64,000 nt of DNA from contig CAYWPX010000009.1 of NCBI GenBank assembly GCA_964460615.1, positions 19,509-83,508 on the forward strand, in the 5' to 3' direction. Each line of letters opens with the position of its first letter. The first letter of the stretch is position 1. A program made the translations under genes and the position numbers. Shown here piece after piece: positions 1 through 24,588 of the stretch. This DNA is from an uncultured Planctomycetia bacterium (lineage in GTDB: Bacteria > Omnitrophota > Gorgyraeia > CAYWPX01). The notes beneath the pieces are model-generated. The model did not search any database and was not told the DNA's origin. It worked only from the letters and a program-made list of their open reading frames with translations.

Positions 1-772
1 CCCGCCTGATAGAGTTATGTTTTTTTGTGATACTGCTCTCCCCGATCGTCTGGGTACCATCCTTATGTTCGGCAATTAATATGACTTTCTCCAGAGTTGA
101 TGGTATAACATTGCCTCTAATGGCCAGAACCTTACTGGATTCCTTTACAGCTTTTTCAAAATCCCCCGTTACCTTTGACATTGCAGTTATGAAAAGGTTG
201 CCAAAATTATGGCCCGCCAAACCTGATCCTTCTTCAAATCTGAACTGAAAAAGTTTGCCCATCAAAGGCTCTGCGTCGGCAAGTGCCACAAGGCAGTTTC
301 TAATATCTCCGGGAGGTAGAACATCTAATTCCTGCCTCAATCTACCCGAAGACCCTCCGTCATCTGCAACAGTAACAATAGCGGTAATATTAGTAGTAAA
401 TTGTTTGAGTCCGTGAAGAAGAACAGATAGTCCGGTACCGCCCCCAATTGTTACAATCTTAGGGCCTTGTTCCAAAAATCTTTTTGAATATAAAAGATCA
501 ATAAGCGAGCCTTCTCTTTCGGCAGGTATAAAAGCCGTTGAGAAAGACTTAATAAGCCTGGTTATACCTGTTATCGCTCCGGCTATTCCGAGTATTACTA
601 TGATACTGGCCCATAATCTGTTATTAGAACGTTGTTCCAATATTAAAACTGCAACTCCCATAGAAAACATGATCATGCTGAATGCAGTAAATAATATCCA
701 ACGCTTTACCCTCATACCAGGGTAAAACCATTTTATGGCCTTAACAAGTTTTTTTGAAAAAAATGACGGCAT
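1..772 (-). CDS. YvcK/CofD-like (UPF0052, gluconeogenesis factor family) protein, 3' end truncated by window edge; N-terminal predicted TM segments
   Basis: Reverse-strand translation starting at ATG (rc of 770-772) gives MPSFFSKKL...IVTIGGGTGLSVLLHGL...VADDGGSSGRLR...PPGDIRNCLVALAD...HNFGNLFITAM, the family-typical GGGTGL and DDGGSSGRL motifs. ORF runs off the window start. Adjacent to ptsN as in conserved ptsN/rapZ/yvcK loci. Confidence 0.7.
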   Translation of the reverse strand, partial: MPSFFSKKLVKAIKWFYPGMRVKRWILFTAFSMIMFSMGVAVLILEQRSNNRLWASIIVILGIAGAITGITRLIKSFSTAFIPAEREGSLIDLLYSKRFLEQGPKIVTIGGGTGLSVLLHGLKQFTTNITAIVTVADDGGSSGRLRQELDVLPPGDIRNCLVALADAEPLMGKLFQFRFEEGSGLAGHNFGNLFITAMSKVTGDFEKAVKESSKVLAIRGNVIPSTLEKVILIAEHKDGTQTIGESSITKKHNSIRR

Positions 773-6909: not shown

Positions 6910-7278
6910 TTATCCGATAAATTTTTTTATTTTAGCTATCAGGTCTTCTGCTTTAAACGGTTTTATCACACAATCGTCCGCGCACATATTCTTAGATTTT
7001 TCGGAAAGCATAAGACTGGAAATATTTGCAGTAAAAAAAATTATCGGTATGGGTTTAAACTTAACGTTACTCTTTAGTATTTTACAAAGCTCTTCACCTT
7101 GCATCCCCGGAAGCCGCAAATCCAATAATATCAGATCAGGCGGGGTTTTTTCTATCAAAGCCAATCCGTCTTCAGCAGTACCTGCCGATATGACTTTGTA
7201 ACCTAATCTTTCCAATCTTACGGTCACAATGATGCACATGTCCGGTTCATCGTCTATAATAAGAATATTTTTCGCCAT
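6910..7278 (-). CDS. single-domain response regulator (REC only)
   Basis: Start taken at MAKNILIIDDEPD (ATG rc 7276-7278) directly after the HK stop. DD...D(LILLD)...T...KPF receiver motifs. The longer ORF-track version overlaps the kinase. Confidence 0.8.
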   Translation of the reverse strand: MAKNILIIDDEPDMCIIVTVRLERLGYKVISAGTAEDGLALIEKTPPDLILLDLRLPGMQGEELCKILKSNVKFKPIPIIFFTANISSLMLSEKSKNMCADDCVIKPFKAEDLIAKIKKFIG

Positions 7279-7279
7279 T

Positions 7280-8725
7280 TTAAGTCCCACTTTTTTTAAT
7301 AGGTAAAGTAAAACTAAAACATGCGCCCTTTTCAAACTCGGATTCAGCCCAGATTTTGCCCTTATGCTTTTCAATGATATCCTTGCAAATAGCAAGCCCC
7401 AGACCAGTACCTCCGGACCTCTTATTGAGCTGAATAAATCTATCAAAAAGCTTAGGCATATCCTCTTTCTTTATCCCGAGACCGGTATCTTTGACGCTAA
7501 CCTTGATAAAACCATTATATAGCGATGTGCTGACTTCTATACTTCCGGATTCGGTAAATTTAAGCGAATTGTCTATCAGATTAACAAGAACCTGGGCGAC
7601 TTTGTCATGGTCAAATACTATCTTAGGCAAATTTTTATCGAGTTTAATCACAAAATCCAAATTTTTTTTCTTCACAAGCGATCCCATCATTTCATATATT
7701 TCACTGATAACATCATTTATATCGTTAATTTTCATCCTGAATTCCATTCTTCCTGACTCAAGCTTCTGAAAATCCAGAACTGCATTTACAAGCCTGGCAA
7801 GCCTGTCCATATTTCTATTGGCCAGACTAAGTAAATTCTTCTGCTCCTCATTTATCTCCCCGGTAACTTCATCAAAAACAATATCAATACCTGCCCTAAT
7901 AGCGGTCAGAGGTGTACGAAGTTCGTGAGAAACCATATCAATAAAATCGGCTTTTATCTTAATTGCCTTCTGCAATTCTTCATTTACCTTAGCCAGGTGT
8001 TCCTGATAACTTTTTAATTTCGCTTCTGTCTTTTTACGTTCTTCGATCTCTATCTGCAATTTCCTTAACGCTACTGCCATATCAGCCCGGGTGGCTTCGT
8101 CGCTTGAAAGAAGATTGTTGATCTCGTTTTCTATCGAACGCTTTGAAGGTTTTATGACAAATTCATCATAAGCATTCCCTTTTGAAACAAATTTCGTCTG
8201 AACTGCCCAGCAATTTGTTTTGAATAATAATGAGAAGTACCCTGCCATTTTCCCGGCCAGCATTCCGCTTCCCCATGAGACCCCTAATGCTTTTTGAAAT
8301 TCTCCCTCCCAGGAGTTCCTTATAGAGACAACTGCTGTTTTCTTTATTTTATCAAGTTTTTTAAGTTTCCAAGCGCCCCATCCGGCAACAGCGGCAATAT
8401 TAGCAATGGCTTTAAAGCCTTCCCTAAAATCCTTGTATTGTGAAATTACCTCCCAGTCATCCTTGCAGCTTGCTCGCCCCTGGCTCTGTTGGGCCAGGAA
8501 AAATCTCTTAGTCCCTACCATGGACTGAACTCCTGACATCAGGCCGGCAAGCGAAGAACCTATCCACATCATAATAACCGGTAGATCTTCAAAAGTCGTT
8601 GTGCCCTCTTTAACATTCCACCTAATATTAACATCTGAAACAATAGCCTTATTAATGCCGGTATTTTTGACTTTATATTTATCCAGACTTGGTTTTATAA
8701 TTTTAGAATATTTATTTGCTGCCAT
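7280..8725 (-). CDS. sensor histidine kinase (HisKA + HATPase_c) with ~220-aa N-terminal domain of unknown family, no obvious TM helices
   Basis: H-box SHELRTPLTAI; N, G1 (DTGLGI) and G2 (GGTGLGL) boxes; coiled-coil linker. Confidence 0.85.
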   Translation of the reverse strand: MAANKYSKIIKPSLDKYKVKNTGINKAIVSDVNIRWNVKEGTTTFEDLPVIMMWIGSSLAGLMSGVQSMVGTKRFFLAQQSQGRASCKDDWEVISQYKDFREGFKAIANIAAVAGWGAWKLKKLDKIKKTAVVSIRNSWEGEFQKALGVSWGSGMLAGKMAGYFSLLFKTNCWAVQTKFVSKGNAYDEFVIKPSKRSIENEINNLLSSDEATRADMAVALRKLQIEIEERKKTEAKLKSYQEHLAKVNEELQKAIKIKADFIDMVSHELRTPLTAIRAGIDIVFDEVTGEINEEQKNLLSLANRNMDRLARLVNAVLDFQKLESGRMEFRMKINDINDVISEIYEMMGSLVKKKNLDFVIKLDKNLPKIVFDHDKVAQVLVNLIDNSLKFTESGSIEVSTSLYNGFIKVSVKDTGLGIKKEDMPKLFDRFIQLNKRSGGTGLGLAICKDIIEKHKGKIWAESEFEKGACFSFTLPIKKSGT

Positions 8726-8755
8726 AACACACCTCTTTCATACGCAAATGATAGT

Positions 8756-8787
8756 TCTAAAAAGAAAACCCCATGCATTACCATGGG
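8756..8787 (-). terminator. hairpin ccccatg/catgggg followed by a T-tract on the minus strand
   Basis: Seen in sequence between the GIY-YIG gene and the HK gene. Confidence 0.45.
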
Positions 8788-10738: not shown

Positions 10739-12022
10739 TTAAGGCGTTATCTTTTCCTTGCCGTCAAAATACTTCCGAAGCGCTTCCGGGATAGCAATAG
10801 ATCCGTCGATCTGTTGGTAATTTTCCATTATCGCTATCACCAGCCTCGCTAACGCCACTCCGGAAGCATTGAGCGTATGGACATATTCGGTTTTAGGTTT
10901 ACGGTTTTCGGTTTTGGATCTGAATCTAATATTAGCGCGCCTTGCCTGAAAATCTTCAAAGTTTGAACAACTCGAAACTTCCAAATTCATCTGGCTCCCT
11001 GGAGCCCATAACTCCAAGTCATAACATTTCGCAGCTGAAAACCCTATCCCTTGGGTGGAAAGGAGCACCACCCTATACGGAAGATTTAATAACTGTAAAA
11101 CTTTCTCAGCATTTTGTAATAGTTTCTCATGTTCATCATAAGACGTTTCGGGCTTTACAAATTTCACAAGCTCAATCTTATCAAACTGATGAACTCTCGT
11201 CATTCCTCTTGTCTCTTTACCGTAAGAACCGGCTTCTCTTCTGAAGCAGGCCGAATAGGCAGTATAGTAAATGGGTAGCTTTTCTTCATCGAGTATCTCA
11301 TCCCTAAAAATATTTGTTATGGGTACTTCGGCGGTAGGGATCAAAAATAAGTCGTCATATTTAAGGGTATACATATCTTCTTCAAATTTTGGCAGTTGGC
11401 CTGTACCTATCATACTGTTTCTATTTACCAAAAATGGAGGGAAAATTTCCGTATAACCATGCTCAGTTGTATGCAGATCAAGCATGAAGTTAATTAGCGC
11501 CCTTTCCAGCCTTGCTCCCATCCCTTTAAAAAGAATAAAGCTTGATGCAGTTATTTTGGTCGCTCTGGGAAAGTCAATAATATCCAATAACTCAGCTAGC
11601 TCCGTATGCGTCCTAGGCTTAAAGTCAAACTCCCTATGTTTTCCCCATTCCTTAACTACTTTGTTTGCTTCATGTTCTGAACCAATTGGCACAGATGAAT
11701 GCGGAATATTTGGGATAGTATATACAATATTAGCAATATTTTGGTCTAATTCCCCCACTCTTTTATCTAAAATCTCAATATTTTGGGATATCATTTTTAG
11801 ACCTTCTATCTTATCCTTAGCGTTGACCTTTTGAGCCATTAAACGGCCTATCTCTTCACTGGCCTTATTCTTTTGGCTCTTAAGGCTCTCGACCTCGGTT
11901 ACAATTTTACGCCTCTCTGAATCTAAGGATAAAAGCTCATCCAGATCCATTGTATAGTTTCTATTCTTAAGCGCCTCTTTTACTTTATCCGGATTTTCCC
12001 TAATAAATTTTATGTCTAACAT
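10739..12022 (-). CDS. serS: seryl-tRNA synthetase
   Basis: 427 aa. N-terminal coiled-coil arm, class II motifs 2 and 3 (FRRE..., GSGLA-like), full-length SerRS similarity. Confidence 0.95.
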   Translation of the reverse strand: MLDIKFIRENPDKVKEALKNRNYTMDLDELLSLDSERRKIVTEVESLKSQKNKASEEIGRLMAQKVNAKDKIEGLKMISQNIEILDKRVGELDQNIANIVYTIPNIPHSSVPIGSEHEANKVVKEWGKHREFDFKPRTHTELAELLDIIDFPRATKITASSFILFKGMGARLERALINFMLDLHTTEHGYTEIFPPFLVNRNSMIGTGQLPKFEEDMYTLKYDDLFLIPTAEVPITNIFRDEILDEEKLPIYYTAYSACFRREAGSYGKETRGMTRVHQFDKIELVKFVKPETSYDEHEKLLQNAEKVLQLLNLPYRVVLLSTQGIGFSAAKCYDLELWAPGSQMNLEVSSCSNFEDFQARRANIRFRSKTENRKPKTEYVHTLNASGVALARLVIAIMENYQQIDGSIAIPEALRKYFDGKEKITP

Positions 12023-12162
12023 TTACGATCCCCTTTTCAATCTGTACTGCGTCTTGAGTAGAGAGTACTGCGGTATATGCGCAATACACCGTACGCCGTA
12101 CGAAATACTATCCTTTAATCACACCTATTGCCTACCGCCTTTGGCGATACGGCCTGAAGCTA

Positions 12163-13626
12163 TCAACCCTTTATAACTCCTATTGGTCGCATCTTGCAGA
12201 CTCTTTTTGCGAGACCCGCCTCATGGACTACATTAACAACATCATTTACATCTTTATATGCTTCAGGCGCTTCTTCTAGTAATGTTTCTCTGCCTGTAGA
12301 TTTGACTATTATACCTTTATTTTCCAATTCGCGCGAGAGATTTCTTCCTTTTAGACTTCTGATCGCAGCACCCCTCGAAAGCATCCGTCCGGCACCATGA
12401 CAAGTAGAACCAAAGGTTTCATCTTCAGCCTTTTTTGTTCCGACTAATAAATACGAATTTCTACCCATATCTCCCGGTATTATAACCGGTTGGCCTATGG
12501 TTTTGTATTTAAGGGGAATATCAGGATGATTTGGCCCAAAGGACCTCGTCGCACCTTTTCTATGAACACATAATAATTTTTCTTTACCATTTATATTATA
12601 TTTTTCTAATTTAGCAATATTATGAGCAACATCATAAATAAGGTCCATACCAAGATCTCTGGAAGATTTTTTGAAAACTTTTTCAAATACATTTCGCGCT
12701 ATATGCATAAGGCACTGCCTATTGGCCCAGGCATAATTAGCTGCGCATCTCATAGCTCCCAGATATTTCTTTCCTTCCGGTGAATTCACCGGAACTGAGG
12801 CAAGCTGCCTATCGGGAACTTGAATATTGTACTTAGATAGTAAATGGATCATATCTTTAGCATATTCATCGCATATCTGATACCCCAACCCCCTTGAGCC
12901 TGAGTGGATCATTAGAACAACACTTCCGACTTCAATACCAAACACCTTGGCTGCAATTTTATCGAAAATTTCATCAACTACCTGCACTTCCATAAAATGG
13001 TTTCCCGAACCAAGAGTCCCTGACTGGTTCTTTCCTCTTTCGTAGGCTCTATCTGAAACTGCGGACGGATCCGCCCCTTCAATAAATCCGCCCGATTCGG
13101 TATATTCTATATCTTCTTTCCTTCCATAGCCTTTTTTCTCTATAACCCACCTTGAACCCTTTAAAAGAAGCTCCCTTTCTTCGAGCGCAGAGATCCTTAC
13201 ATCTCCTTTAGATCCAACGCCTGCAGGTACGTCGTTAAAAAGCGCATACACCAGATCCTTTAGAACCGGCCTGATATCATCTTCAAACAAATTTGTCCTA
13301 ACTAACCTTACCCCACAATTTATATCATAGCCCACTCCGCCGGGCGAAACTACTCCGCCGTTTTCTATATCTGTTGCAGCGACGCCTCCTATAGGAAAAC
13401 CATACCCCCAATGAATATCAGGCATAGCCAAAGAAGCGTTTACTATTCCGGGCAAAGTGGCTACATTTGCAACCTGCTCCATAGCCTTATCTTTAAAGAT
13501 ATCCTTGAGCATTCCTTCACTTGAATAGATAATACCCGGTACCCGCATGCCTTCTTTATAAGATTTTGGTATACGCCATCTGTAGTCGTCAATCTTTTCT
13601 ATGGGTATGTTTATTGTATCTGGCAT
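12163..13626 (-). CDS. rtcB: RNA-splicing ligase RtcB (3'-phosphate/5'-OH RNA ligase)
   Basis: 487 aa. GGVGYDINCGVR, HSGSRGLG, HNIA and CVHRKGATR motifs. Confidence 0.95.
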   Translation of the reverse strand: MPDTINIPIEKIDDYRWRIPKSYKEGMRVPGIIYSSEGMLKDIFKDKAMEQVANVATLPGIVNASLAMPDIHWGYGFPIGGVAATDIENGGVVSPGGVGYDINCGVRLVRTNLFEDDIRPVLKDLVYALFNDVPAGVGSKGDVRISALEERELLLKGSRWVIEKKGYGRKEDIEYTESGGFIEGADPSAVSDRAYERGKNQSGTLGSGNHFMEVQVVDEIFDKIAAKVFGIEVGSVVLMIHSGSRGLGYQICDEYAKDMIHLLSKYNIQVPDRQLASVPVNSPEGKKYLGAMRCAANYAWANRQCLMHIARNVFEKVFKKSSRDLGMDLIYDVAHNIAKLEKYNINGKEKLLCVHRKGATRSFGPNHPDIPLKYKTIGQPVIIPGDMGRNSYLLVGTKKAEDETFGSTCHGAGRMLSRGAAIRSLKGRNLSRELENKGIIVKSTGRETLLEEAPEAYKDVNDVVNVVHEAGLAKRVCKMRPIGVIKG

Positions 13627-13727
13627 TTTTAAATTCCTTTAGCTATAAGGCAATTAGATAATTGAGTGATTGGTTTAATTTTTTACCTAATCGCATTATA
13701 ACCTAATCACTATTTTTTATATACGAG

Positions 13728-14144
13728 CTACACATCAAAAATAATCTCTGCGCTATACATATCACCGGCCTTTGTTATCTTAAAATCGTGATATGTCACG
13801 CCCTTGACTTCGGCTTTAAGCACATGCCTTCTCTTATCAAAATCGTCACCAACAATTTCGGCAACGATCTCGCAATCAGCCAGTTTTTTTATTTTAATTT
13901 TTTTAATAAGAAATTCTCTGGAGGTATAAAAATAAAGGAGCTCGCTTAAAAAATTTATAAGCAGCTCCTCCAAGTTCGGGGCCTTGATAGAAACTTCTTT
14001 TTTCAAGGCCCCTTTAATTTTTTTTGTATCACTAAGAACATCAAATAAAGCTAAAGCCGAATTAGTAAAAAGCGTTTTAAGGGTTTTCCCATGCGCTCTT
14101 ACGCCTATGTCTGCAGTATGATCAAAATACTCAAAGCGCTTCAT
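13728..14144 (-). CDS. archease (RtcB activator)
   Basis: 138 aa. Signature FEYFDHTADIGVRAHG at the N-terminus; located immediately upstream of rtcB. Confidence 0.85.
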   Translation of the reverse strand: MKRFEYFDHTADIGVRAHGKTLKTLFTNSALALFDVLSDTKKIKGALKKEVSIKAPNLEELLINFLSELLYFYTSREFLIKKIKIKKLADCEIVAEIVGDDFDKRRHVLKAEVKGVTYHDFKITKAGDMYSAEIIFDV

Positions 14145-15244: not shown

Positions 15245-16567
15245 TTATTTAGCCAATTTCGCTTCATCAAGCTCAGACATAAGGTACTTAACCTTTGCCA
15301 CTAAAATATAATAATCCTTGGTAAATTTAAGCAGATTGAACTGAGATCTCATATAGTTAAAATTTGAATCAATAATATCGCTCTGATCAACATCGCCTCT
15401 TTGATAAAGTGTAAATGACATATTAAGCGCCTCGTCTGCATCGCTAAACACAGAGCGCTGGCTTGATAATAATTTCTTTGTCTTCTCCAGATTTGCCGTG
15501 GCTTCTTCAAGGTCAAGTCGGATCTCATCCTTTATAAATCTTTCTACGGTCTCTAAGCGCGAATATTCGGACCTTAGCTGTGAAATTTGGGATGAATTAT
15601 CAAACCCGTCAAACAACGGAAGCTTAAAGTTGAGCACCAAAGACCAGTTATACTCATATGACCCGCCTAGATTAAATTTATTTGAGCTTTCGTAAAATGT
15701 GCTTTTCAAGCTTGCTTGGGGAGCATAACGCGAATACGCGGCATTAAGGGCCTGCTTACCGATCTTACTGGAGAGCTCCGCGACTTTTACGGTTAAATTG
15801 GTATTATAAACTTTATTGGACAGATCTTTTATATCATAATTGGTCATATTCTTCTCTTCGGGACAAACCAACTCCCCGATCACTGAAATTGTTTCGGGGC
15901 CGGGGATCATAAGTAATTTTTTTAATCTAGTTTCAAGGGTCTTTTTCTCCTTTTCAAAATTCAGAGAATCGGATTCAAGATTTTCGACCTCGATCTTTGA
16001 TCTCAGGATCTCGTATTTATGTACCTCCCCGGTCTTACTCATCCCCATAAGGTTGGAAGAGTAGCCTTCCATCCTGTTAATTGCCCTGGCGTTTAATTCC
16101 TCGAGTTTTTCATTCAAAAGAAGCTCATAATAAGTATTGATTATATCGTATATGATCTTGTTGCGCTTCTCATAATAAGCCTGCAGCTCTTTTTCAAGTG
16201 AGAGTCGGGCTTTTAAATAGTTGTAATAACTTTCTCCGCCTTTAAAAAGGTCCTGATTGATCTGGATATTCCCAACACTAGGCGCCTGCAAGAATGTCTC
16301 ATCCGCGACTCTCCCGGCCCCCGGAGAATCAGCCGAAATATAATTATAATTAGCATATATTTTCGGTAAAAATGCCGAAAAATTCTGTAATAGGTAGGCC
16401 CTGGCTTTTTTTACGTTTTCTTTGGCGATCTTAAGATCGGTATTTCTCGATAGCCCGGTTTCAATACATGCTTTCAGATTTAAGGGCTCTTTAAACTCCT
16501 CACCGGATACGGAATTAATTTTTAGAACGAATATAAAAACAACAAAAAATAAAAGGATTTTTTTCAT
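15245..16567 (-). CDS. TolC-like outer membrane efflux/channel protein (OEP family)
   Basis: 440 aa. Signal peptide, two tandem OEP-type repeats with coiled-coil and beta signatures. Confidence 0.6.
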   Translation of the reverse strand: MKKILLFFVVFIFVLKINSVSGEEFKEPLNLKACIETGLSRNTDLKIAKENVKKARAYLLQNFSAFLPKIYANYNYISADSPGAGRVADETFLQAPSVGNIQINQDLFKGGESYYNYLKARLSLEKELQAYYEKRNKIIYDIINTYYELLLNEKLEELNARAINRMEGYSSNLMGMSKTGEVHKYEILRSKIEVENLESDSLNFEKEKKTLETRLKKLLMIPGPETISVIGELVCPEEKNMTNYDIKDLSNKVYNTNLTVKVAELSSKIGKQALNAAYSRYAPQASLKSTFYESSNKFNLGGSYEYNWSLVLNFKLPLFDGFDNSSQISQLRSEYSRLETVERFIKDEIRLDLEEATANLEKTKKLLSSQRSVFSDADEALNMSFTLYQRGDVDQSDIIDSNFNYMRSQFNLLKFTKDYYILVAKVKYLMSELDEAKLAK

Positions 16568-16571
16568 ATTT

Positions 16572-17876
16572 TTATCTATACTCCGGCCTGTTGTCCCAAA
16601 CTTTTTTGGGCAAATAATTACTTCTCAAAAATGACATTCTAAAAAATTCAAGAAGATACGCAAACATACTGACCGCCCTCAAAAATAAGCTGTAGAAAAA
16701 AAAGATCGGGGAATATAATACAAACACCCAGTCCCTGCCCGGATCATCCGAAAGAAGAGCCACAATAGTAAATTGGATAAAATTCATAATAGTATAATAC
16801 AACAGCGTTACTATAACTATAAAAGGAAAAATCTGGGGAAAAAATATTGCTATCAAAATAAAATACAAAGGAAAAATGAATAAAAGCACAAGATTAAAAA
16901 AAAGATCCAAAACGCCTGCGATAAAATCACCTATTTTAAACGAATGAAAATCAAGAAGATTTCTGTGTTTTCTTAAATTTATACTCACATAACATCTGTC
17001 CCAACGTATCCTCTGCTTGGCCAGTCTAATCCACGTATCAGGGACTTCTGTCAACGCTATGGCCTTGGGCGCAAACGCAACTTTAAACCCGAGCTTTCTT
17101 GTCTTTATTGTTAAATCAAGGTCCTCGCCTGTCTCCGGGTCAGCCCCTTTCAGGTCAGTCATTACTTCGCGCCTATAGCTCGAAAAAGCACCTGAGGCGA
17201 TCTGAAGCAAATCCGTAAAAGCAAGCCATCTTCTCGAAATACTAATACACATGCCGTACTCAGCGGCCTGAAGGCGCGTAACAAGATTCTCTTTGTCATT
17301 ATACACCTTCAAATTGCCGCTTACTACACCAACCCTCTTATCTCTAAACGGCTTCACGGCTTCGGATATCGCATTACGATGTACCAGAGTATCGCCGTCA
17401 AAACCCATGATAATTTCTCCTTTAGAGAAATTTAAACCATAATTTATAGCTGAGGGCTTTCCCCCTCTTTCGGTTTTACGGAAAAATTTTATCAATCCCT
17501 TAGACTCAAAATTTCTGCAAATTTCGGGAGTATTATCTTCGGATTTATCATCAACAACAATTATTTCAAAGTTCGGGTAGTCATTCTCTAAAAAAGAATT
17601 TATGGTATTCTTTAGCCTTATACCTTCATTGTAAACGGGCAAAATAACACTCACAAAAGGCTTGTATTCTAACGAGCTCTCTTCATCCTTCTTTTCGCTT
17701 CCGAAAATCTCCAAAAAAAGAATTATTGAATTTCCGATATAATAACGCGTGGTATCAAATAATAGCGCCGGTCCAAAAAGAAAGACTATCTCGAATGGAG
17801 AGCGCGACATAACATTATCTATAGAAAATGCTATGTATTCACCGACCAAATTTATAAAATCAAAAATTATATGCAT
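16572..17876 (-). CDS. processive family-2 glycosyltransferase (PgaC/cellulose/hyaluronan-synthase-like), membrane-embedded
   Basis: 434 aa. VILPVYNEG, VVDDKSED, DGDT and the processive-synthase QRIRW motif. One N-terminal and ~4 C-terminal TM helices. Confidence 0.85.
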   Translation of the reverse strand: MHIIFDFINLVGEYIAFSIDNVMSRSPFEIVFLFGPALLFDTTRYYIGNSIILFLEIFGSEKKDEESSLEYKPFVSVILPVYNEGIRLKNTINSFLENDYPNFEIIVVDDKSEDNTPEICRNFESKGLIKFFRKTERGGKPSAINYGLNFSKGEIIMGFDGDTLVHRNAISEAVKPFRDKRVGVVSGNLKVYNDKENLVTRLQAAEYGMCISISRRWLAFTDLLQIASGAFSSYRREVMTDLKGADPETGEDLDLTIKTRKLGFKVAFAPKAIALTEVPDTWIRLAKQRIRWDRCYVSINLRKHRNLLDFHSFKIGDFIAGVLDLFFNLVLLFIFPLYFILIAIFFPQIFPFIVIVTLLYYTIMNFIQFTIVALLSDDPGRDWVFVLYSPIFFFYSLFLRAVSMFAYLLEFFRMSFLRSNYLPKKVWDNRPEYR

Positions 17877-18595
17877 TATTTAAATATTTTACAGTGGACC
17901 GACATGCCAAACTTAAAATATTTATTAAAATCATCTGATGCATCAAGCGGGAATATCCTGACTTTAAAAACTTTCTCCGGTAAATAATAGTACCTTGAAA
18001 ACATTTTGGGCATTTGATCTATCTCGGCATAAACAAACTCTATCTTACCCTTAATTTTTTTGTCTTTAATGCTCGACCAGACCTCGGCCTCCTGCCCCAC
18101 TCTCACGTTATTGATAAAGCGAGCAGGAACAAATGCATCTATCCAATACCGTTTGGGTTTTGTAACACTATAAATCACATCTCCTTTGTTAACTATATCC
18201 CCAACGGATTTATTTTTTTTGACTATCACCATTTCATAGCTTGCCCTTATGTCTTTGGATAATCCTCCGGCTTCGTCAGAAGCTTTGATGAGAGCAATCG
18301 TACTCCCCTCTTCAACCCTTGCGCCTGTTTCAGCATAAAGCTGGCTTATCTTTCCGTCTATAGGGGAAGTAATGCTAGATAGATCCATATTCTCCATTTC
18401 TAGCTGCATTGGACCCATTACTACACCATTAACAAATAAAGTATCCAATGTCAAAAACCTCCAAACAACAAATGGTGTAGCTAAAAATATTATAAAGAAT
18501 ACAAACTTGACTATTTTCGGCAGACCCTTCTTAGGGCTTTGACGTTCGGCTTGAGCCTTATTTACAGTAAACGCCTCTATCTTTCTTAGTCTCAT
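17876..18595 (-). CDS. HlyD-like periplasmic adaptor / membrane-fusion protein (short form)
   Basis: 239 aa. N-terminal TM anchor, biotin-lipoyl-like SPIDGKISQLYAETGARVEEG and a beta-barrel domain. 1-nt overlap with the GT2 gene. Confidence 0.55.
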   Translation of the reverse strand: MRLRKIEAFTVNKAQAERQSPKKGLPKIVKFVFFIIFLATPFVVWRFLTLDTLFVNGVVMGPMQLEMENMDLSSITSPIDGKISQLYAETGARVEEGSTIALIKASDEAGGLSKDIRASYEMVIVKKNKSVGDIVNKGDVIYSVTKPKRYWIDAFVPARFINNVRVGQEAEVWSSIKDKKIKGKIEFVYAEIDQMPKMFSRYYYLPEKVFKVRIFPLDASDDFNKYFKFGMSVHCKIFK

Positions 18596-20049
18596 ATAGT
18601 TTTCCCTGACATATTAATTAGTTTATTTAATAGCTCTTCATCAGTTCTGCCATCCTCAGGGTAAGAAACTGACGATACTTTAACGTTAATATGCTCCCTA
18701 CTGGTATACTCATTAAGCTTTTTATTTATAAAACGTTCCAGCTCCAGGGCCTTAGATTTATCGGCCTCCGGAAGAAGAGTAATTAAAGCGCTCTTGTCGT
18801 AACGGGCGTGTATGTTTATTTTCCAGAGATTCTCCTTTAGAAGGGTCGCTATGTCATTAAGCATCCTCCTGGCTCCACTAAAACCGGCCTTTTTGGTCAA
18901 TTCATCAAAATTGAGGACATTCACCATAACAATGGAAAAATGCTCTTTGAATTTTTCAGCACGGTCTAACTCCTCATCAAGTCTTTTCTTAAAATACCGG
19001 TTACTATATACCTCAACATCAGTATCAAGCAGTATCTGGTCCATGTTCAAATCTATAAATCTCCCCGACTCTACAACACCAGCCGCATCTTCGGTAATAG
19101 GATATTTAAATATATCCTGCCTCATAGCATTATCGATCTCAAATATTTTTTTGCAATTCCTGCATTGAGCGCTTACATCCGGTTCGGTGAACTTTTCTCC
19201 GTTATCATTACATACGAAACTTTGCCCCGGCTTATCATAATCCACCCCTATCTGCTTTAATTCATGCTCGCATTTTGGGCAGATGTACTGCGTCCCCTTT
19301 TTAAATTCTTCTTCAATGCCGGTATAGCCGCACCTGAAATGGTGGATCATTTCAACTATTGATATATTTGCGCTATGGGTAGTCGGACACGTCTCTCTGA
19401 TATTTATATCGTGATGCATGCAATATGGGCATAGAAGGACCCTGTCAAAAAATCTTTTTTCAAAACACCCTTTATTAACCAAAAATTCGATATGATCTAT
19501 TTCGCTTCCGTCATTGACTTTAAAAAAATTTGCGGCAATTGGATAGCCATAACCGCTCAGGGAATTCATATTATATTCCGGGATCAATTCCTTAATGTTA
19601 TTATCCAGCATACTTTTCAGGAAATCCACTCTCAACTTGTCTTCTTTGGATATGACCGGAGGTTGAGTGGTTTTTTTAGCCCTCCTCAAAACAACTTCTA
19701 TCCTGGCTATAAGCTCCTGGGCATCATAGGGTTTGGTTATGTAATCATCTATACCGAATTTAAAAAATTTTACCTTATCTTCCATACCGGATCTCGCGGT
19801 AAGGGCAATGGCAGGAATAGCTGATTTTTTGGCATCGGCATGCAACTTCTGAAGGACTTCAAATCCATCCATCCCGGGCATCATAATATCAAGGAGTATC
19901 AAATCCGGAGTATTGGTATCCGTATAGAGCAGAGCTTCTTTGCCGCTTAAAACACTATGAACATTGAACCCCGCGTTTTCCAATCTCATAGTTAAAAGCC
20001 GGCTAACATCCGGTTCATCATCTACAATAAGAATATTCCCTTTTGCCAT
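18592..20049 (-). CDS. response regulator: REC + Cys-rich (zinc-ribbon-like) middle domain + degenerate GGDEF domain
   Basis: 485 aa. REC motifs (VDDE, LILLDIMMPGMDG, ALTA, KPY). CPYC..C..C..CPKC..C..CRNC cluster. C-terminal GGDEF fold with RYDKSAL replacing RYGGDEF and no RxxD I-site. Confidence 0.75.
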   Translation of the reverse strand: MAKGNILIVDDEPDVSRLLTMRLENAGFNVHSVLSGKEALLYTDTNTPDLILLDIMMPGMDGFEVLQKLHADAKKSAIPAIALTARSGMEDKVKFFKFGIDDYITKPYDAQELIARIEVVLRRAKKTTQPPVISKEDKLRVDFLKSMLDNNIKELIPEYNMNSLSGYGYPIAANFFKVNDGSEIDHIEFLVNKGCFEKRFFDRVLLCPYCMHHDINIRETCPTTHSANISIVEMIHHFRCGYTGIEEEFKKGTQYICPKCEHELKQIGVDYDKPGQSFVCNDNGEKFTEPDVSAQCRNCKKIFEIDNAMRQDIFKYPITEDAAGVVESGRFIDLNMDQILLDTDVEVYSNRYFKKRLDEELDRAEKFKEHFSIVMVNVLNFDELTKKAGFSGARRMLNDIATLLKENLWKINIHARYDKSALITLLPEADKSKALELERFINKKLNEYTSREHINVKVSSVSYPEDGRTDEELLNKLINMSGKTI

Positions 20050-20070: not shown

Positions 20071-21456
20071 CTATTGTTTTATATTTAATTCTTCCGGATG
20101 GTTTGTATAATATTTTTTCATTTTAATCAAAATATCATCCATTGAAGTGGAAGGTATAAAATTTAAAATTCTTTCAAGCTTCCTCAGATCAGGAATGCGC
20201 TTTCTTATATCCTCAAAATTGGTCCCATAATATTTTTCGTAATCTTCAAATTTTATTTGCGAAGAACTTCCGGTAATATTTATTATACGCTGGGCAAGGT
20301 CACTTATGGTTATATTATTATTACTTCCGAGATTTATCAGCTGACCGTTTGCATCTTTGGAATTAGCAAGTCTTATGATTATCTCTACGGCGTCTTCAAC
20401 ATATGTAAAACACCTGGACTGTTTCCCGTCCCCGTAAATAACAAGCGGTTTATTATTAAAGGCGTTATAAAAGAATCTCGGTATAACCATTCCAAAATTC
20501 CCGACCTGACCCGGGCCTACTATATTAAAAAGCCTTACCACAACAACCGGGAGATTCCTTTCCTTATGATACGCTATCGTGAGAAATTCATCAAGTAATT
20601 TTGAACAAGCATAGCTCCACCTGTTAACATCAGGGGGCCCGATAACGACATCATTATCCTCTCTAAAAGGAAGCTGGTCGGATTTGCCGTAGACTTCGGA
20701 GGTTGAGGTGAGAAAAACCTTGATATGTTTTTGTGAAGCATATTTCAGGACTAACTCAGTCCCGTAAGTATCATTTATTATGGTATCAAGAGGCCTGTCG
20801 ACAACATTTTTAACTCCTACCGTAGCCGCTAAGTGATATATCATATCGACTTTATCTATCAGTTTACTTATAAGCGCTTCATCAGTAACAGATCCTCTCG
20901 TTAAATTAAAATTTTTTAAACCTGCCATATCCTCAATATTTTTTTCTCTGCCCGTAGAAAAATCATCTAATACATAGACGTTATATTTCATTTTTACAAG
21001 CACCCTTGCCAAATGCGAGCCTATAAAACCGGCCCCACCGGTAACAAGAATATTATTAATGGTATTTTTGGCGGCATCCTTTGACCTTCGTAAGACTGCA
21101 TTAACTCTGCTTATGAATTCCTCTGCCTCAAATGGCTTTGTTATATAATCATCCGCTCCCAGATCAAGGCATTTAACCATGTTTGACGACGATTGATCCG
21201 CCGTAAGCATTATAACCGGGATAAAAGCGGTTTTTCTATCAGAGCGGATCTTTGCCAATAGAGTATACCCGTCCATATCAGGCATCTCGATATCCATAAT
21301 GATAATATCGGGGATCTCTTTTTTTAAATATTCCAGGGCATCAATCCCGCTTGCGACTGCGGAAGCAATAAAGCCGGATTTATTTAAGCGCGGCAGAAGC
21401 ACCTTGCCGACTTCCCTTTCATCATCGATTATTAATACTTTTGGTACTGGCGACAT
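20071..21456 (-). CDS. REC domain fused to NAD-dependent sugar-nucleotide epimerase/dehydratase (extended SDR, UDP-glucuronate decarboxylase/UXS-like)
   Basis: 461 aa. N-terminal REC (IDDE, IIIMDIEMPDMDG, MLTA, KPF), then VTGGAGFIGSH Rossmann, catalytic SxS...YACSK (YxxxK). Confidence 0.85.
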   Translation of the reverse strand: MSPVPKVLIIDDEREVGKVLLPRLNKSGFIASAVASGIDALEYLKKEIPDIIIMDIEMPDMDGYTLLAKIRSDRKTAFIPVIMLTADQSSSNMVKCLDLGADDYITKPFEAEEFISRVNAVLRRSKDAAKNTINNILVTGGAGFIGSHLARVLVKMKYNVYVLDDFSTGREKNIEDMAGLKNFNLTRGSVTDEALISKLIDKVDMIYHLAATVGVKNVVDRPLDTIINDTYGTELVLKYASQKHIKVFLTSTSEVYGKSDQLPFREDNDVVIGPPDVNRWSYACSKLLDEFLTIAYHKERNLPVVVVRLFNIVGPGQVGNFGMVIPRFFYNAFNNKPLVIYGDGKQSRCFTYVEDAVEIIIRLANSKDANGQLINLGSNNNITISDLAQRIINITGSSSQIKFEDYEKYYGTNFEDIRKRIPDLRKLERILNFIPSTSMDDILIKMKKYYTNHPEELNIKQ

Positions 21457-21461
21457 ACGTC

Positions 21462-22802
21462 CTATCTCCTATTCTTTCTATCCAGGATGATCCTTCTGAT
21501 TTCAGCCCTGATCTTATCCGGATCGTGACGGACTACTTCTGTTTCATTTGCTATATCGGCTATAACAATACGAGCTTTAGTAATTTTTTTGATTTCGTTG
21601 ATATCATTAATAAAGACGGGGAATTGATTTTTTTTGGAATATTTTTTTACTGAACTCTTGGATAATTTATTTGTATCGTTTATTAATATATAATCCAAGC
21701 TATCCGATTTAAGATATTTTATAATTTCGCTGATATGATTAGCCGCATCAAACCCGTAAGTTTCACCCGGTTTTGTCATAAGATTGCATATATACACCTT
21801 AACTGCGGGCGAATCTATTATAGCATCTCTTATGGCTTTAACTAATAAATTTGTTATAATACTGGTAAACAGATCTCCCGGGCCGATTGTAACCATATCA
21901 GAATTAATGATCGACGAACAAGCGCCTGTATCGGCTTTCGAAGGAGGCTCGTGCCAGCAATCGATGATCTTCAGGGATTTGTCCCGCCCAACCCCAAGAT
22001 CAATATTGCTTTCGCCTTTAATAACTTTACCATTTTCAAATTTTGCACATAAGGTAGGATTTGTTATTGTGGCAGGATTTACTATCCCTTTAATATTAAG
22101 TATGTCGCCCATGGCCCTGACCGCTTCAGGCATCGAGCCGGTAATATCGGATAAGGCAGTGATAAGCAAATTACCTAAGCTATGACCGCTAAGGCCCGGG
22201 GCCTTTTTAAATCTGTACTGCATTACTTTATCCATTAGATCCGGAGTGGTGGATAGAGCGACCAGATTCCTTCTTATGTCTCCCGCCGGGATCCCGCCAA
22301 AAGCCGCCTTAAGCCTTCCCGACGAACCGCCATCATCACTGGTGCTTACTATGGAGGTCAAAAATACATCATCGAGTTCCTTTAACCCCATTAAGAGATT
22401 AAATAATCCCGTCCCTCCCCCAATAGATGAGACCCTGTACTTTTTTTCAAATACTGCTTTGACTTTTAATAGGATCTCCCTGTGGTTAAAAGGCTTGGAC
22501 AAAAAGTCCTTGGAGCCGTATTTTTGAAAATCAAAGACATCCTCCAGGCTTTCGGAGAGAGAAGAAATAAAAAAAGGGATTTTAGAAACTTCAACAATAT
22601 TAAGGTTTTTTTGGAATAATACAGGATTGCTTTTGTAGGAATCTTTATCAAATACTATAATGTCCGGCGAGAAATCGATCAATGCAGATTTCAAAGTTTC
22701 GAAATCAAATACTCTTTTAACCTCTAAAACAAGTTTTGATAGAAAAGGCTTGATATCTTCTACAAACTTATCGTTTCCAATCAATAAAAATCTTTTATTC
22801 AT
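21462..22802 (-). CDS. REC-like receiver domain fused to YvcK/CofD-like (UPF0052) domain
   Basis: 446 aa. N-terminal ~125 aa with receiver pattern (LIGND, IIVFDKD, FFISS, SKPF), then IGGGTGLFNLL, DDGGSSGRL and PAGDIRRNLVALS motifs of the YvcK family. Confidence 0.75.
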   Translation of the reverse strand: MNKRFLLIGNDKFVEDIKPFLSKLVLEVKRVFDFETLKSALIDFSPDIIVFDKDSYKSNPVLFQKNLNIVEVSKIPFFISSLSESLEDVFDFQKYGSKDFLSKPFNHREILLKVKAVFEKKYRVSSIGGGTGLFNLLMGLKELDDVFLTSIVSTSDDGGSSGRLKAAFGGIPAGDIRRNLVALSTTPDLMDKVMQYRFKKAPGLSGHSLGNLLITALSDITGSMPEAVRAMGDILNIKGIVNPATITNPTLCAKFENGKVIKGESNIDLGVGRDKSLKIIDCWHEPPSKADTGACSSIINSDMVTIGPGDLFTSIITNLLVKAIRDAIIDSPAVKVYICNLMTKPGETYGFDAANHISEIIKYLKSDSLDYILINDTNKLSKSSVKKYSKKNQFPVFINDINEIKKITKARIVIADIANETEVVRHDPDKIRAEIRRIILDRKNRR

Positions 22803-22871
22803 TAAGATTTTTCCTATGAAAATTGTTGTGTAGATGATTGGAGCAAATTTTGCAACTTTTAATCAGATTGA

Positions 22872-22900
22872 AATATTTGCTTTAAGTATTTATCTGTCAA
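22872..22900 (-). promoter_or_regulatory. candidate promoter (TTGACA-17-AATATT) upstream of the REC-fusion operon
   Basis: rc of 22895-22900 = TTGACA; -10-like AATATT at 22872-22877; ~70 nt upstream of the ATG at 22802. Weak -10. Confidence 0.3.
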
Positions 22901-23079
22901 ACAATTATATCATAGGGCATTGATATTTCAATATAAATATAAATGGCCAATAATGACACAAGCTGTAGCTATTTCAATGCATTCAAATGACCCATTTCGG
23001 TCTAAAAACAAAAAAATATGGCAAAGATGCATAGAAGCAAACAAATACTTTTCTTCCAAAATCTTTGCCATTAAAGCTC

Positions 23080-23190
23080 TTATTTTTTACAGACACATTC
23101 ACTCGCTTTCTTTTTGCATCCGCTGCAAACCCCTTTTTCGATTGGCTTGCCACAATTCTTACACGGTGTACACCCGCAAACTTCGCACAT
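23080..23190 (-). CDS. small Cys-rich peptide (36 aa, 11 Cys), metallothionein-like or precursor-peptide-like
   Basis: MCEVCGCTPCKNCGKPIEKGVCSGCKKKASECVCKK. GGGGGTGA Shine-Dalgarno 6 nt upstream. TATAAT-like -10 ~70 nt upstream. Not in the ORF track (<60 aa). Confidence 0.4.
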   Translation of the reverse strand: MCEVCGCTPCKNCGKPIEKGVCSGCKKKASECVCKK

Positions 23191-23411
23191 GTTAATCACC
23201 CCCGCTCTAAGATCTTTCTATATGGAATTGCCAAAAAAATGTTAAAAATTAATATTAATTATACAGCATATTAAAAAAAAGAAAATTGGCAGATTCTATT
23301 ACTATTTGACTTTTTTCTACCTATAGATAATTTAGAATGTTTTGCATATGCTCTTAATAGGGGTAAGCACATATTCTTAAGATATTGTAAAATTCCATAA
23401 TTTTAGAATCC

Positions 23412-23965
23412 AAAATTAAGAAATTTTAGCAACAATCGCATGGACAAAAAATAAACCTCTTATTTTTTTAAGAGGTTTTAATTGAATTTTGCCCCTCGTT
23501 TTGCCTAAATTGCTTCTTCTCGACGCAATTTACGGCAACTCGGGATTGGTGAGCCGCCCGTGACTCTCCCGACGCAATCCTTTGGATAGGTCGGGATTCC
23601 GACTTACCTGTTTTATGGGTAACGTCGGAAGAACACGGCGTATCTACCAATGAATAAAATTGAAAGACTGAGAGGGTATATGTCCATGCGCTTAAAATAG
23701 TACTAAAATTCCTTAATTTTCAAGAACACAAAATTAAGAAATTTTAGTATTAATCGCATGGACAAAAAATAAACCTCTTATTTTTTTAAGAGGTTTTAAT
23801 TGAATTTTGCCCCTCGTTTTGCCTAAATTGCTTCTTCTCGACGCAATTTACGGCAACTCGGGATTGGTGAGCCGCCCGTGACTCTCCCGACGCAATCCTT
23901 TGGATAGGTCGGGATTCCGACTTACCTGTTTTATGGGTAACGTCGGAAGAACACGGTGTATTTGG
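23412..23965. repeat. Two ~232-bp direct repeats (23412-23643 and 23731-23960, period ~319 bp). Each contains a bidirectional terminator hairpin and the 3'-terminal 20 nt of tRNA-Lys(TTT).
   Basis: Near-identical blocks. tggtgagccgcccgtgactc at 23548-23566 and 23865-23884 equals the tRNA 3' end at 24143-24162. ORFs 23468-23650 and 23786-24001 lie inside the repeats and are likely spurious. Confidence 0.85.
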
Positions 23966-24103
23966 TATTAACGGTATCGGGATTGGGGGGCTATTACGCA
24001 CATGCTCTTAAAGAGAAATGCCGATATTCTTAAGATATTGTAAAAATTCCTTAATTTTAATTACAAAATTAAGGAATTTTTACAATAAGAATATGGACCA
24101 AAA

Positions 24104-24142
24104 TAAAAAATCATTCTTAATTTTAAGAATGATTTTTTATTT
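24104..24142. terminator. bidirectional rho-independent terminator abutting the tRNA-Lys(TTT) 3' end
   Basis: aaaaaatcattcttaa-tttt-aagaatgatttttt: perfect 11-bp stem flanked by A- and T-tracts. Confidence 0.7.
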
Positions 24143-24218
24143 TGGTGAGCCGCCCGTGACTCGAACACGGCACAACCACATTAAAAGTGTGGTGCTCTAC
24201 CTGATGAGCTAGCGGCCC
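24143..24218 (-). tRNA. tRNA-Lys (anticodon TTT), encoded CCA
   Basis: rc reads GGGCCGCTAGCTCATCAGGTAGAGCACCACACTTTTAATGTGGTTGTGCCGTGTTCGAGTCACGGGCGGCTCACCA. Anticodon loop CTTTTAA. Confidence 0.85.
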
Positions 24219-24566
24219 ACGTTAAACTTAAATCTAAATTTCAATACTAGGCAATCTGACTGATGTCGCTTTGTTGATGTCCCAAAAAACTTAAGTTTTT
24301 TGGGATGAATTAGCTCTTGATCCTTAAAAACTCGTTTTTCTGCCTGCTGCCTTAGGGCAGTCAGGCAGTAATCATGATCTAATTCTACGGCCCACGTTAA
24401 ACTTAAATCTAAATTTCAATACTAGGCAATCTGACTGATGTCGCTTTGTTGATGTCCCAAAAAACTTAAGTTTTTTGGGATGAATTAGCTCTTGATCCTT
24501 AAAAACTCGTTTTTCTGCCTGCTGCCTTAGGGCAGTCAGGCAGTAATCATGATCTAATTCTACGGC
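24216..24566. repeat. Tandem 175-bp repeat x2 (+ partial third) between frr and tRNA-Lys(TTT). Each unit carries a perfect 24-bp palindrome cccaaaaaacttaagttttttggg and an imperfect GC hairpin ctgcctgctgcc-ttag-ggcagtcaggcag.
   Basis: Units 24216-24390 and 24391-24565 are near-identical; the unit boundary includes the first nt of the tRNA 5' end (cggccc). Confidence 0.85.
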
Positions 24567-24588
24567 CCCCTTTAATTCAAAATCTAAA

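Follow-up and report, generated by a model that had tools for sequence, protein, structure and literature searches.

In this work, we analysed a 64,000-nucleotide stretch of contig CAYWPX010000009.1 (the window throughout this text; assembly GCA_964460615.1, from an uncultured bacterium labelled Planctomycetia and placed by GTDB among the Omnitrophota), and within it a gene whose product joins two domains in one polypeptide of 446 amino acids (Table 1). Residues 1-120 form a receiver-like domain, and residues 122-446 form a domain of the YvcK/GlmR family, the UDP-N-acetylglucosamine (UDP-GlcNAc)-binding proteins that are also annotated as CofD-like or UPF0052. The N-terminal domain is a receiver by fold and ancestry, lacking the full catalytic set, and on its aligned residues it falls among the pseudo-receivers. 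The fusion is a lineage-specific invention of the Omnitrophota and not an assembly artefact. What is new is the pseudo-receiver-YvcK architecture itself, its restriction to the Omnitrophota and the fact that its pairing with a polysaccharide synthase and a UXS-like enzyme fused to a receiver (UXS, UDP-glucuronate decarboxylase), under a sensor kinase, is conserved; what was already known is both domain families and the name YvcK that the Prokaryotic Genome Annotation Pipeline (PGAP) gives to these proteins. No description of a pseudo-receiver-YvcK fusion was found in the searchable literature.

The receiver nature of the N-terminal domain was not obvious from standard annotation. Pfam Response_reg (PF00072) matched residues 15-114 with 19.4 bits, under the gathering score of 30.2, and a precomputed PF00072 match was present in 34 of the 120 full-length relatives over which this and all following residue counts for the family were taken, 120 being a lower bound on the number of relatives. 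A sequence search with the single fusion protein aligned residues 3-118 with solved receiver domains at E about 2e-5, and a profile made from 45 diverse N-domains of the family retrieved receiver domains from PDB at E 1e-13 and below, the best matches being KdpE, PhoP, VicR, MicA and PmrA, all of them OmpR/PhoB-type receivers. The AlphaFold2 (AF2) model of the fusion protein, built with 75 family sequences (mean pLDDT 92.7, pTM 0.92), contains a (beta-alpha)5 unit spanning residues 4-118, with beta1 at 4-8, alpha1 at 11-21, beta2 at 27-31, alpha2 at 34-43 and beta3 at 48-52, followed by alpha3 at 60-73, beta4 at 77-81, alpha4 at 86-94, beta5 at 99-102 and alpha5 at 107-118. When compared by Foldseek, this part of the model resembled the MicA and VicR receivers (1nxp, 8fk2; target TM 0.81-0.85). 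The profile search and the fold match thus rule out that the domain, in view of its sub-threshold Pfam score, is something other than a receiver.

The catalytic positions were placed by alignment to CheY, to two canonical receivers of the same operon and to PDB receivers. Of the five-residue set that a canonical receiver uses (the acidic pair DD, the acceptor Asp, Thr/Ser and Lys), the protein has D52, S81 and K103, and the acidic pair, which in CheY is D12-D13 and binds Mg2+, is replaced by G9-N10. This loss is a property of the whole family: the first acidic position is Gly in 113 relatives and acidic in none of the 120, and the second is a variable Ser/Asn/Asp/Gly position, acidic in 17. 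The residues that remain are well kept. Asp occupies the D52 position in 110/120 relatives, and the D+2 position (D54 here) is Asp in 114/120; the Thr/Ser position is Ser in 116 and Thr in the other 4; at position 103, in the Lys-Pro pair K103-P104, 95 relatives have Lys and 16 have Arg; and Asp, Ser/Thr and Lys occur together in 91/120. The aromatic switch residue is F100 in this protein and Tyr in most relatives (Tyr or Phe in 112/120). The MPxxDG loop between beta3 and alpha3 is replaced by a segment of variable length. The beta5-alpha5 block is under clear constraint, with G96, D99, P104, R108 and E109 each conserved at 90% or more, and the alpha4-beta5-alpha5 face carries the motif GAxDYIxKPYNxRE.

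[quoted passage not shown] The latter is also present here, and because G9-N10 replace the acidic pair, the N-terminal domain is, on its aligned residues, a pseudo-receiver in the sense of that definition. One truncated family member of 243 amino acids (P0124) apparently misses the whole beta3 'FDxD' segment, with the remainder kept. If real, it would mean that some lineages can do without the Asp at the acceptor position; alternatively, it could be an assembly or gene-call artefact.

The C-terminal domain was assigned with no such difficulty. Pfam CofD (PF01933) matched residues 126-406 with E 2e-80, and the NCBIfam model TIGR01826 ('UDP-GlcNAc-binding protein YvcK') scored 304.6 bits, well over its cutoff of 196, in an alignment that spans positions 1-309 of the 310 in the profile. 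The nearest solved structures by sequence are those of Bacillus halodurans YvcK, 2o2z (E 1.6e-58) and 2hzb (E about 1e-58), and the AF2 model superimposed on 2o2z with a target TM of 0.92 and a root-mean-square deviation of 2.0 A at 39% identity. The identity of a CofD enzyme of F420 synthesis was rejected, TIGR01819 giving only 20.7 bits against a cutoff of 257.45. The functional residues were mapped by HMMER alignment to 2o2z and the published residue correspondence, according to which T13/N217/Y264/R300 of the B. halodurans protein equal T14/N218/Y265/R301 of the UDP-GlcNAc site in B. subtilis (PMC5482804). In the fusion protein, the four B. subtilis residues correspond to T131 (local sequence GGGTG), N340 (CNLMT), Y388 (KKYSK) and R425 (VRHD), which are conserved in 115-120 of the 120 relatives. 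In Listeria GlmR, the triple mutation of D40, D41 and N198 cuts the uridyltransferase activity about 100-fold (PMC10128056); the equivalents here are D156 and D157 (DDGGSSG) and N318 (TNLLV), conserved in 112-120 of the 120 relatives. By alignment, the YvcK part therefore keeps all seven residues implicated in UDP-GlcNAc binding in Bacillus and in uridyltransferase activity in Listeria, and the corresponding activity is predicted. The position of T304, the site phosphorylated by PrkC in B. subtilis YvcK (PMC13046274), is Pro in this protein and mostly Ser in its relatives.

In the AF2 model, alpha5 of the pseudo-receiver ends at residue 118 and the first YvcK strand occupies residues 122-128, so that there is no flexible linker at the junction. 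Since the pTM is 0.92 and only these few residues separate the two elements, the pseudo-receiver and the YvcK domain are, in the model, rigidly coupled. A search of PDB with Foldseek found no solved protein carrying both a receiver-like and a YvcK part. A mis-joined assembly was ruled out by at least 120 full-length relatives on independent contigs with the same junction, and by the linker-free model. These relatives are 433-464 amino acids long and 45-56% identical to the protein of the window; those named by source are all Candidatus Omnitrophota/Omnitrophica among the matches listed, and their database names are 'YvcK' or 'cofD-like', with the N-domain never mentioned. Seven loci of the family came to light when one genome was scanned for each GTDB species, all in metagenome-assembled genomes of Omnitrophota, one of them labelled Planctomycetia. 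When the N-domain profile was run against 1.84 billion representatives clustered at 50% identity, three matches were below 1e-30, namely one full-length and two truncated members of the family; below them ranked a few other truncated fragments of the family, ahead of ordinary multi-receiver proteins. Since this search returned just the one family above the multi-receiver proteins, the pseudo-receiver subtype appears only in the YvcK fusion; its sharing with other architectures was looked for and not found among these representatives.

The original prediction, made from the sequence alone, had described the gene as a receiver-type domain joined to a YvcK/CofD-like domain, and the Pfam and NCBIfam matches, the N-domain profile and the AF2 model all bear this out. 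Its question whether the UDP-sugar-binding residues are kept is answered positively by T131, N340, Y388 and R425, and the acceptor-type Asp/Lys constellation, with D52 in the 'VFD' motif it had pointed to, Ser81 and Lys103, is present and conserved in the family. Right as well were a second YvcK paralogue in the window, the membrane-anchored one at its left edge beside a gene of EIIA(Ntr) type, and the place of the fusion gene at the head of an operon of exopolysaccharide (EPS) type. The architecture is not unique to the window and defines a conserved Omnitrophota family.

The fusion gene begins with an ATG preceded by AGGA at a distance of about 9 nt. The promoter-like site in front of it is the top sigma-70-like site in a 12.6-kb scan (TTGAAA-16-TATAAT, 11/12, as a consensus match only). 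The gene is the first of a closely packed operon on the minus strand, in which adjacent genes lie -4 to 24 nt apart and the next gene encodes a canonical receiver fused to a short-chain dehydrogenase/reductase (REC-SDR). The REC-SDR protein matched Pfam Response_reg with 102 bits together with Epimerase/GDP_Man_Dehyd, and in PDB it matched the UXS structure 4lk3 (E 4e-50); all five catalytic residues (DD, D, T/S, K) are present in the receiver of every distinct homologue aligned there. It is followed by a protein with receiver, TackOD1 and GGDEF domains, the last degenerate as read from the sequence (RYDKSA instead of RxGGDEF, no RxxD I-site), which among the loci examined is present only in the cassette variant of the window. 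The operon also encodes a processive membrane synthase of glycosyltransferase family 2 (GT2). Its best NCBIfam match is PgaC_IcaA (166 bits, under the cutoff of that model), NodC is also among its best matches, and in PDB it matches hyaluronan and cellulose synthases. A QRIRW motif lies at residue 288, and the C-terminal part contains hydrophobic helices. Since the synthase is processive, with this motif, and PgaC/NodC-like, a UDP-GlcNAc-type donor is plausible for it.

Table 1. Features of the fusion gene, its operon and the second YvcK paralogue (positions in the window)
Feature	Position	Strand	Evidence or remark
Pseudo-receiver-YvcK/GlmR fusion gene	21462..22802	minus	ATG-to-stop open reading frame, 446 amino acids, stop codon 21462-21464
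Pseudo-receiver domain, residues 1-120, (beta-alpha)5 CheY-like fold	22443..22802	minus	profile, fold match, AF2 model
G9-N10 codons at the canonical acidic pair (CheY D12-D13, Mg2+ binding)	22773..22778	minus	translation and alignments
F51-D52-K53-D54 codons, with the phospho-acceptor-position Asp D52 and the Asp at D+2 (D54)	22641..22652	minus	translation
YvcK/GlmR (CofD-like, UPF0052) domain, residues 122-446	21465..22439	minus	Pfam, NCBIfam and PDB matches
Promoter-like site TTGAAA-16-(TG)TATAAT	22904..22931	minus	about 100 nt upstream of the fusion gene start codon
Canonical receiver-SDR (REC-SDR), SDR nearest UXS	20071..21456	minus	5 nt downstream of the fusion gene
Receiver-TackOD1 (Cys-rich)-degenerate GGDEF protein	18592..20049	minus	Pfam matches
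Membrane-anchored HlyD/membrane-fusion-protein-like periplasmic adaptor, 239 amino acids	17876..18595	minus	Pfam HlyD_3, HlyD_D23; one N-terminal hydrophobic segment
Processive membrane GT2 synthase, PgaC/NodC/hyaluronan-cellulose synthase class	16572..17876	minus	Pfam Glycos_transf_2
TolC-like outer-membrane factor (OEP)	15245..16567	minus	Pfam OEP E 2e-41; best NCBIfam TolC family, under cutoff
Membrane-anchored YvcK paralogue, first 257 residues, C-terminus cut by the window edge	1..772	minus	Pfam CofD E 8e-64; TIGR01826 218 bits
Phosphotransferase system EIIA(Ntr)-type gene	795-1259	minus	directly precedes the membrane-anchored YvcK paralogue

The surroundings of the fusion gene were then compared over 20 related, mutually non-redundant loci whose downstream sequence was informative. 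An SDR gene lies immediately downstream in 16 of the 20, and it is receiver-fused in all of them (for example, 11329-12711 in locus L005 and 7385-8767 in locus L006) except L002. A GT2 synthase follows further downstream in all ten distinct loci that are long enough (10/10). Nine related loci share the order of a single receiver, an unknown protein of 277 amino acids, a HEAT-repeat protein and the GT2 synthase, from which the window differs. Nine loci carry a large sensor kinase of the dCache/PAS/HisKA type directly upstream, separated from the fusion gene by none or up to three single receivers, and in L002, where the SDR is without a receiver, the stop codon of the kinase overlaps the start codon of the fusion gene. 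The canonical receiver fused to a UXS-like SDR is an unusual receiver-enzyme architecture in its own right, and most related loci keep it directly after the YvcK fusion.

The reading we favour, with about even confidence, is that the fusion protein is a UDP-GlcNAc supply or sensing module for the EPS synthase, tied to the two-component system via protein contacts. By analogy with GlmR, which serves as an accessory uridyltransferase, stimulates GlmS and senses UDP-GlcNAc, the YvcK domain would make or sense UDP-GlcNAc (or a related UDP-sugar) and match precursor supply to the demand of the polysaccharide synthase. In CheY, phosphorylation is lost or severely reduced when D12 or D13 is substituted. 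Since the Mg2+ ligands are missing, the pseudo-receiver itself is probably not phosphorylated; it may act as a docking and allosteric module through its conserved alpha4-beta5-alpha5 face. The most plausible coupling would be a heterodimer with the phosphorylated OmpR/PhoB-like receivers of neighbouring proteins (REC-SDR, single-domain receivers), or docking to the kinase, and the two-component signal would then reach the enzyme at the protein level and not via transcription. Some signal coupling is likely, while direct phosphorylation of the fusion protein is doubtful in view of its residues.

In a more elaborate, Omnitrophota-specific form, which we put forward tentatively as one possibility, a single sensor kinase would regulate the output of polysaccharide at the post-translational level: phosphorylated receivers, free or UXS-fused, would assemble with the pseudo-receiver of the GlmR-type UDP-GlcNAc uridyltransferase or sensor, and the resulting metabolon, dependent on phosphorylation, would turn on precursor supply and modification at the synthase. 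If true, the pseudo-receiver would be a 'receiver-for-a-receiver' adaptor, the first one known to sit on a metabolic enzyme.

Several observations weigh against the reading we favour. In four of the 20 loci (L003, L004, L011 and L012) the fusion gene is followed by neither an SDR nor a synthase: in L003 a UDP-GlcNAc 2-epimerase and a cluster of Bcs-like genes precede it, in L004 it lies amid housekeeping genes, and L011 and L012 have no cassette. Because these loci lack the SDR and synthase, and in view of the housekeeping setting of L004, the role of the fusion protein may be general and not operon-specific. The contig scan used exact peptide patterns from 10 close N-domain sequences, so that the loci recovered are biased to one subclade. 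In the window itself no sensor kinase lies directly upstream of the fusion gene, the nearest kinase being at 7280-8725, as part of a kinase-receiver pair at 6910-8725. The proposed heterodimer draws on a single source, the sequence likeness to OmpR/PhoB-type receivers. Finally, the strong conservation of D52, S81 and K103 and the unusual Asp at D+2 are hard to reconcile with an idle pocket.

The last point leads to the alternative of true phospho-gating, in which the operon kinase phosphorylates D52 and the Ser81/aromatic-100 switch alters YvcK activity or the affinity for UDP-GlcNAc. It is essentially the 'phosphorylation-gated' logic of the original prediction, which the evidence does not bear out in that form, and we consider it unlikely. 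Its main argument is that the conserved D+2 Asp could stand in for the lost metal ligand; D52, S81 and positions 103 and 100 are all widely conserved, and the kinase genes directly upstream in nine loci, including the overlap with the YvcK start codon in L002, also fit. On the other hand, both Mg2+ positions are non-acidic, the first being nearly always Gly and the second variable, a pattern that speaks against selection for metal binding; the MPxxDG loop is gone, its replacement varying in length; substitutions at the equivalent CheY positions cripple phosphorylation; and fully canonical receivers in the same operons are the obvious kinase targets. Phosphorylation control of YvcK as such is already known in Firmicutes, where the Ser/Thr kinase PrkC performs it (PMC13046274).

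Another explanation, which also appears improbable, takes the protein for the housekeeping cytoplasmic GlmR of Omnitrophota, with the pseudo-receiver as a relic that serves stability or oligomerisation and with polysaccharide neighbours that reflect common use of UDP-GlcNAc. The presence of the family in many Omnitrophota genomes, annotated plainly as YvcK, agrees with it, as do the purely housekeeping neighbourhood of L004, the missing cassette in L011 and L012, and the fact that many pseudo-receivers are constitutive dimers (PMC12632262). Such a role is at odds with the strong constraint on the switch residues and on the alpha4-beta5-alpha5 face, with the position of the gene, which in most loci has a kinase with receivers on one side and receiver-fused enzymes on the other, and with the other YvcK paralogue of the window, which stands in a conserved regulatory context beside ptsN. 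Least probable, and in our opinion very unlikely, is a ligand-binding pseudo-receiver whose remodelled pocket (D52, D54, S81 and K103, with a beta1-alpha1 loop rich in glycine) would take up a small molecule, for instance a sugar phosphate, a nucleotide or cyclic di-GMP (c-di-GMP), and so set YvcK activity allosterically: the pocket residues are conserved despite the loss of the metal site, c-di-GMP binding to the ShkA pseudo-receiver provides a precedent and the window operon has a degenerate GGDEF protein, but the latter is confined to the cassette variant of the window, no ligand motif is recognisable, and the idea comes from inference alone.

Compared with GlmR (YvcK) of B. subtilis and Listeria monocytogenes, the fusion protein belongs to the same family (TIGR01826), has the same UDP-GlcNAc and uridyltransferase residues and is likewise tied to envelope or polysaccharide synthesis that consumes UDP-GlcNAc. 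The differences are substantial. The Firmicute GlmR has no N-terminal pseudo-receiver; the PrkC site T304 is replaced by Pro in the fusion protein; and the latter comes from a Gram-negative-type candidate phylum, where it occurs alongside a second, membrane-anchored paralogue. Firmicute glmR lies in a yvcJ(rapZ)-glmR-whiA operon, whereas the fusion gene lies in an operon of two-component, nucleotide-sugar and synthase genes, and no match to a RapZ or WhiA family came from the neighbours scanned in the window and in the related loci. The yvcJ/rapZ-whiA synteny of YvcK is reported for Firmicutes and Actinobacteria, and it is lineage-typical and not strictly defining. CofD/FbiA, the 2-phospho-L-lactate transferase of F420 synthesis, has the same superfamily fold (Foldseek E about 1e-10) and the same Pfam family PF01933, but is only 14% identical, and F420 genes are not nearby.

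The pseudo-receivers of ChxR, BldM/WhiI and ShkA (REC1) have the same receiver fold with incomplete catalytic residues. Their outputs are DNA-binding or kinase domains, whereas in the fusion protein a YvcK domain, enzymatic or metabolite-binding, takes this place; moreover, the fusion pseudo-receiver differs from them in having lost both DD positions while Asp, Ser and Lys are kept. As in the fusion protein, a receiver is N-terminal to an enzyme in proteins of the CheB, PleD and RpfG types, and the adjacent REC-UXS-like gene, with its canonical receiver, truly belongs to this class; yet those receivers are catalytically complete and their phosphorylation is a demonstrated switch, whereas the fusion protein is without the metal site.

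The membrane-anchored YvcK paralogue has two N-terminal hydrophobic helices (24-46 and 52-76). A BLASTP comparison with the fusion protein gave 35% identity over a local alignment of 260 residues, visibly higher within the YvcK part. In Proteobacteria, rapZ follows ptsN at the position where the window has this YvcK paralogue, and no RapZ family match was found among the window proteins scanned.

Other features of the operon and its upstream region deserve mention. The GT2 synthase is flanked by the short HlyD-like membrane-fusion protein and the TolC-like factor (15245-18595, minus strand), which suggests export of the polymer by a route in the style of tripartite efflux and not of the BcsB/BcsC or PgaA/PgaB type. 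The same string of genes ends with an archease-RtcB RNA ligase pair (12163-14144, minus strand) immediately after a Band7 gene. Upstream of the fusion gene are tRNA-Lys and frr, and downstream is REC-SDR. The tRNA-Lys(ttt) gene (24143-24218, minus strand) lies in the intergenic region 22803-24588 and is flanked by unusual repeats. Two perfect tandem repeats of 175 nt (24213-24387 and 24388-24562) each start with the first bases of the tRNA, and two repeats of 239 nt with 97% identity (23405-23643 and 23723-23961) each include a duplicate of the tRNA 3' end with a terminator-like hairpin behind it; an element of 85 nt occurs in three copies within the same region. The repeats look like serial duplications of an att site or of tRNA fragments left by integrations. 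Between them and the promoter region of the fusion gene, at 23080-23190 of the minus strand, is an open reading frame of 36 codons with nine cysteines (MCEVCGCTPCKNCGKPIEKGVCSGCKKKASECVCKK), preceded by a GGGGGTG site resembling a ribosome-binding site. An Rfam scan found no riboswitch or leader upstream of the fusion gene, tRNA-Lys being the sole match.

GlmR/YvcK is an actively debated regulator and accessory enzyme of UDP-GlcNAc synthesis, and the controls known for it, namely ligand feedback, Ser/Thr phosphorylation and acetylation, all come from Gram-positive bacteria. The practical value of the present finding is limited for now, the host organisms being uncultured. The operon offers a natural test case, with a pseudo-receiver and canonical receivers side by side, for the role of a pseudo-receiver that keeps Asp, Ser and Lys without a metal site, and also for the control of GlmR beyond the Gram-positive bacteria. 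The fusion points to another control route, in which a two-component system may act directly on the nucleotide-sugar supply for exopolysaccharide in an uncultivated phylum.

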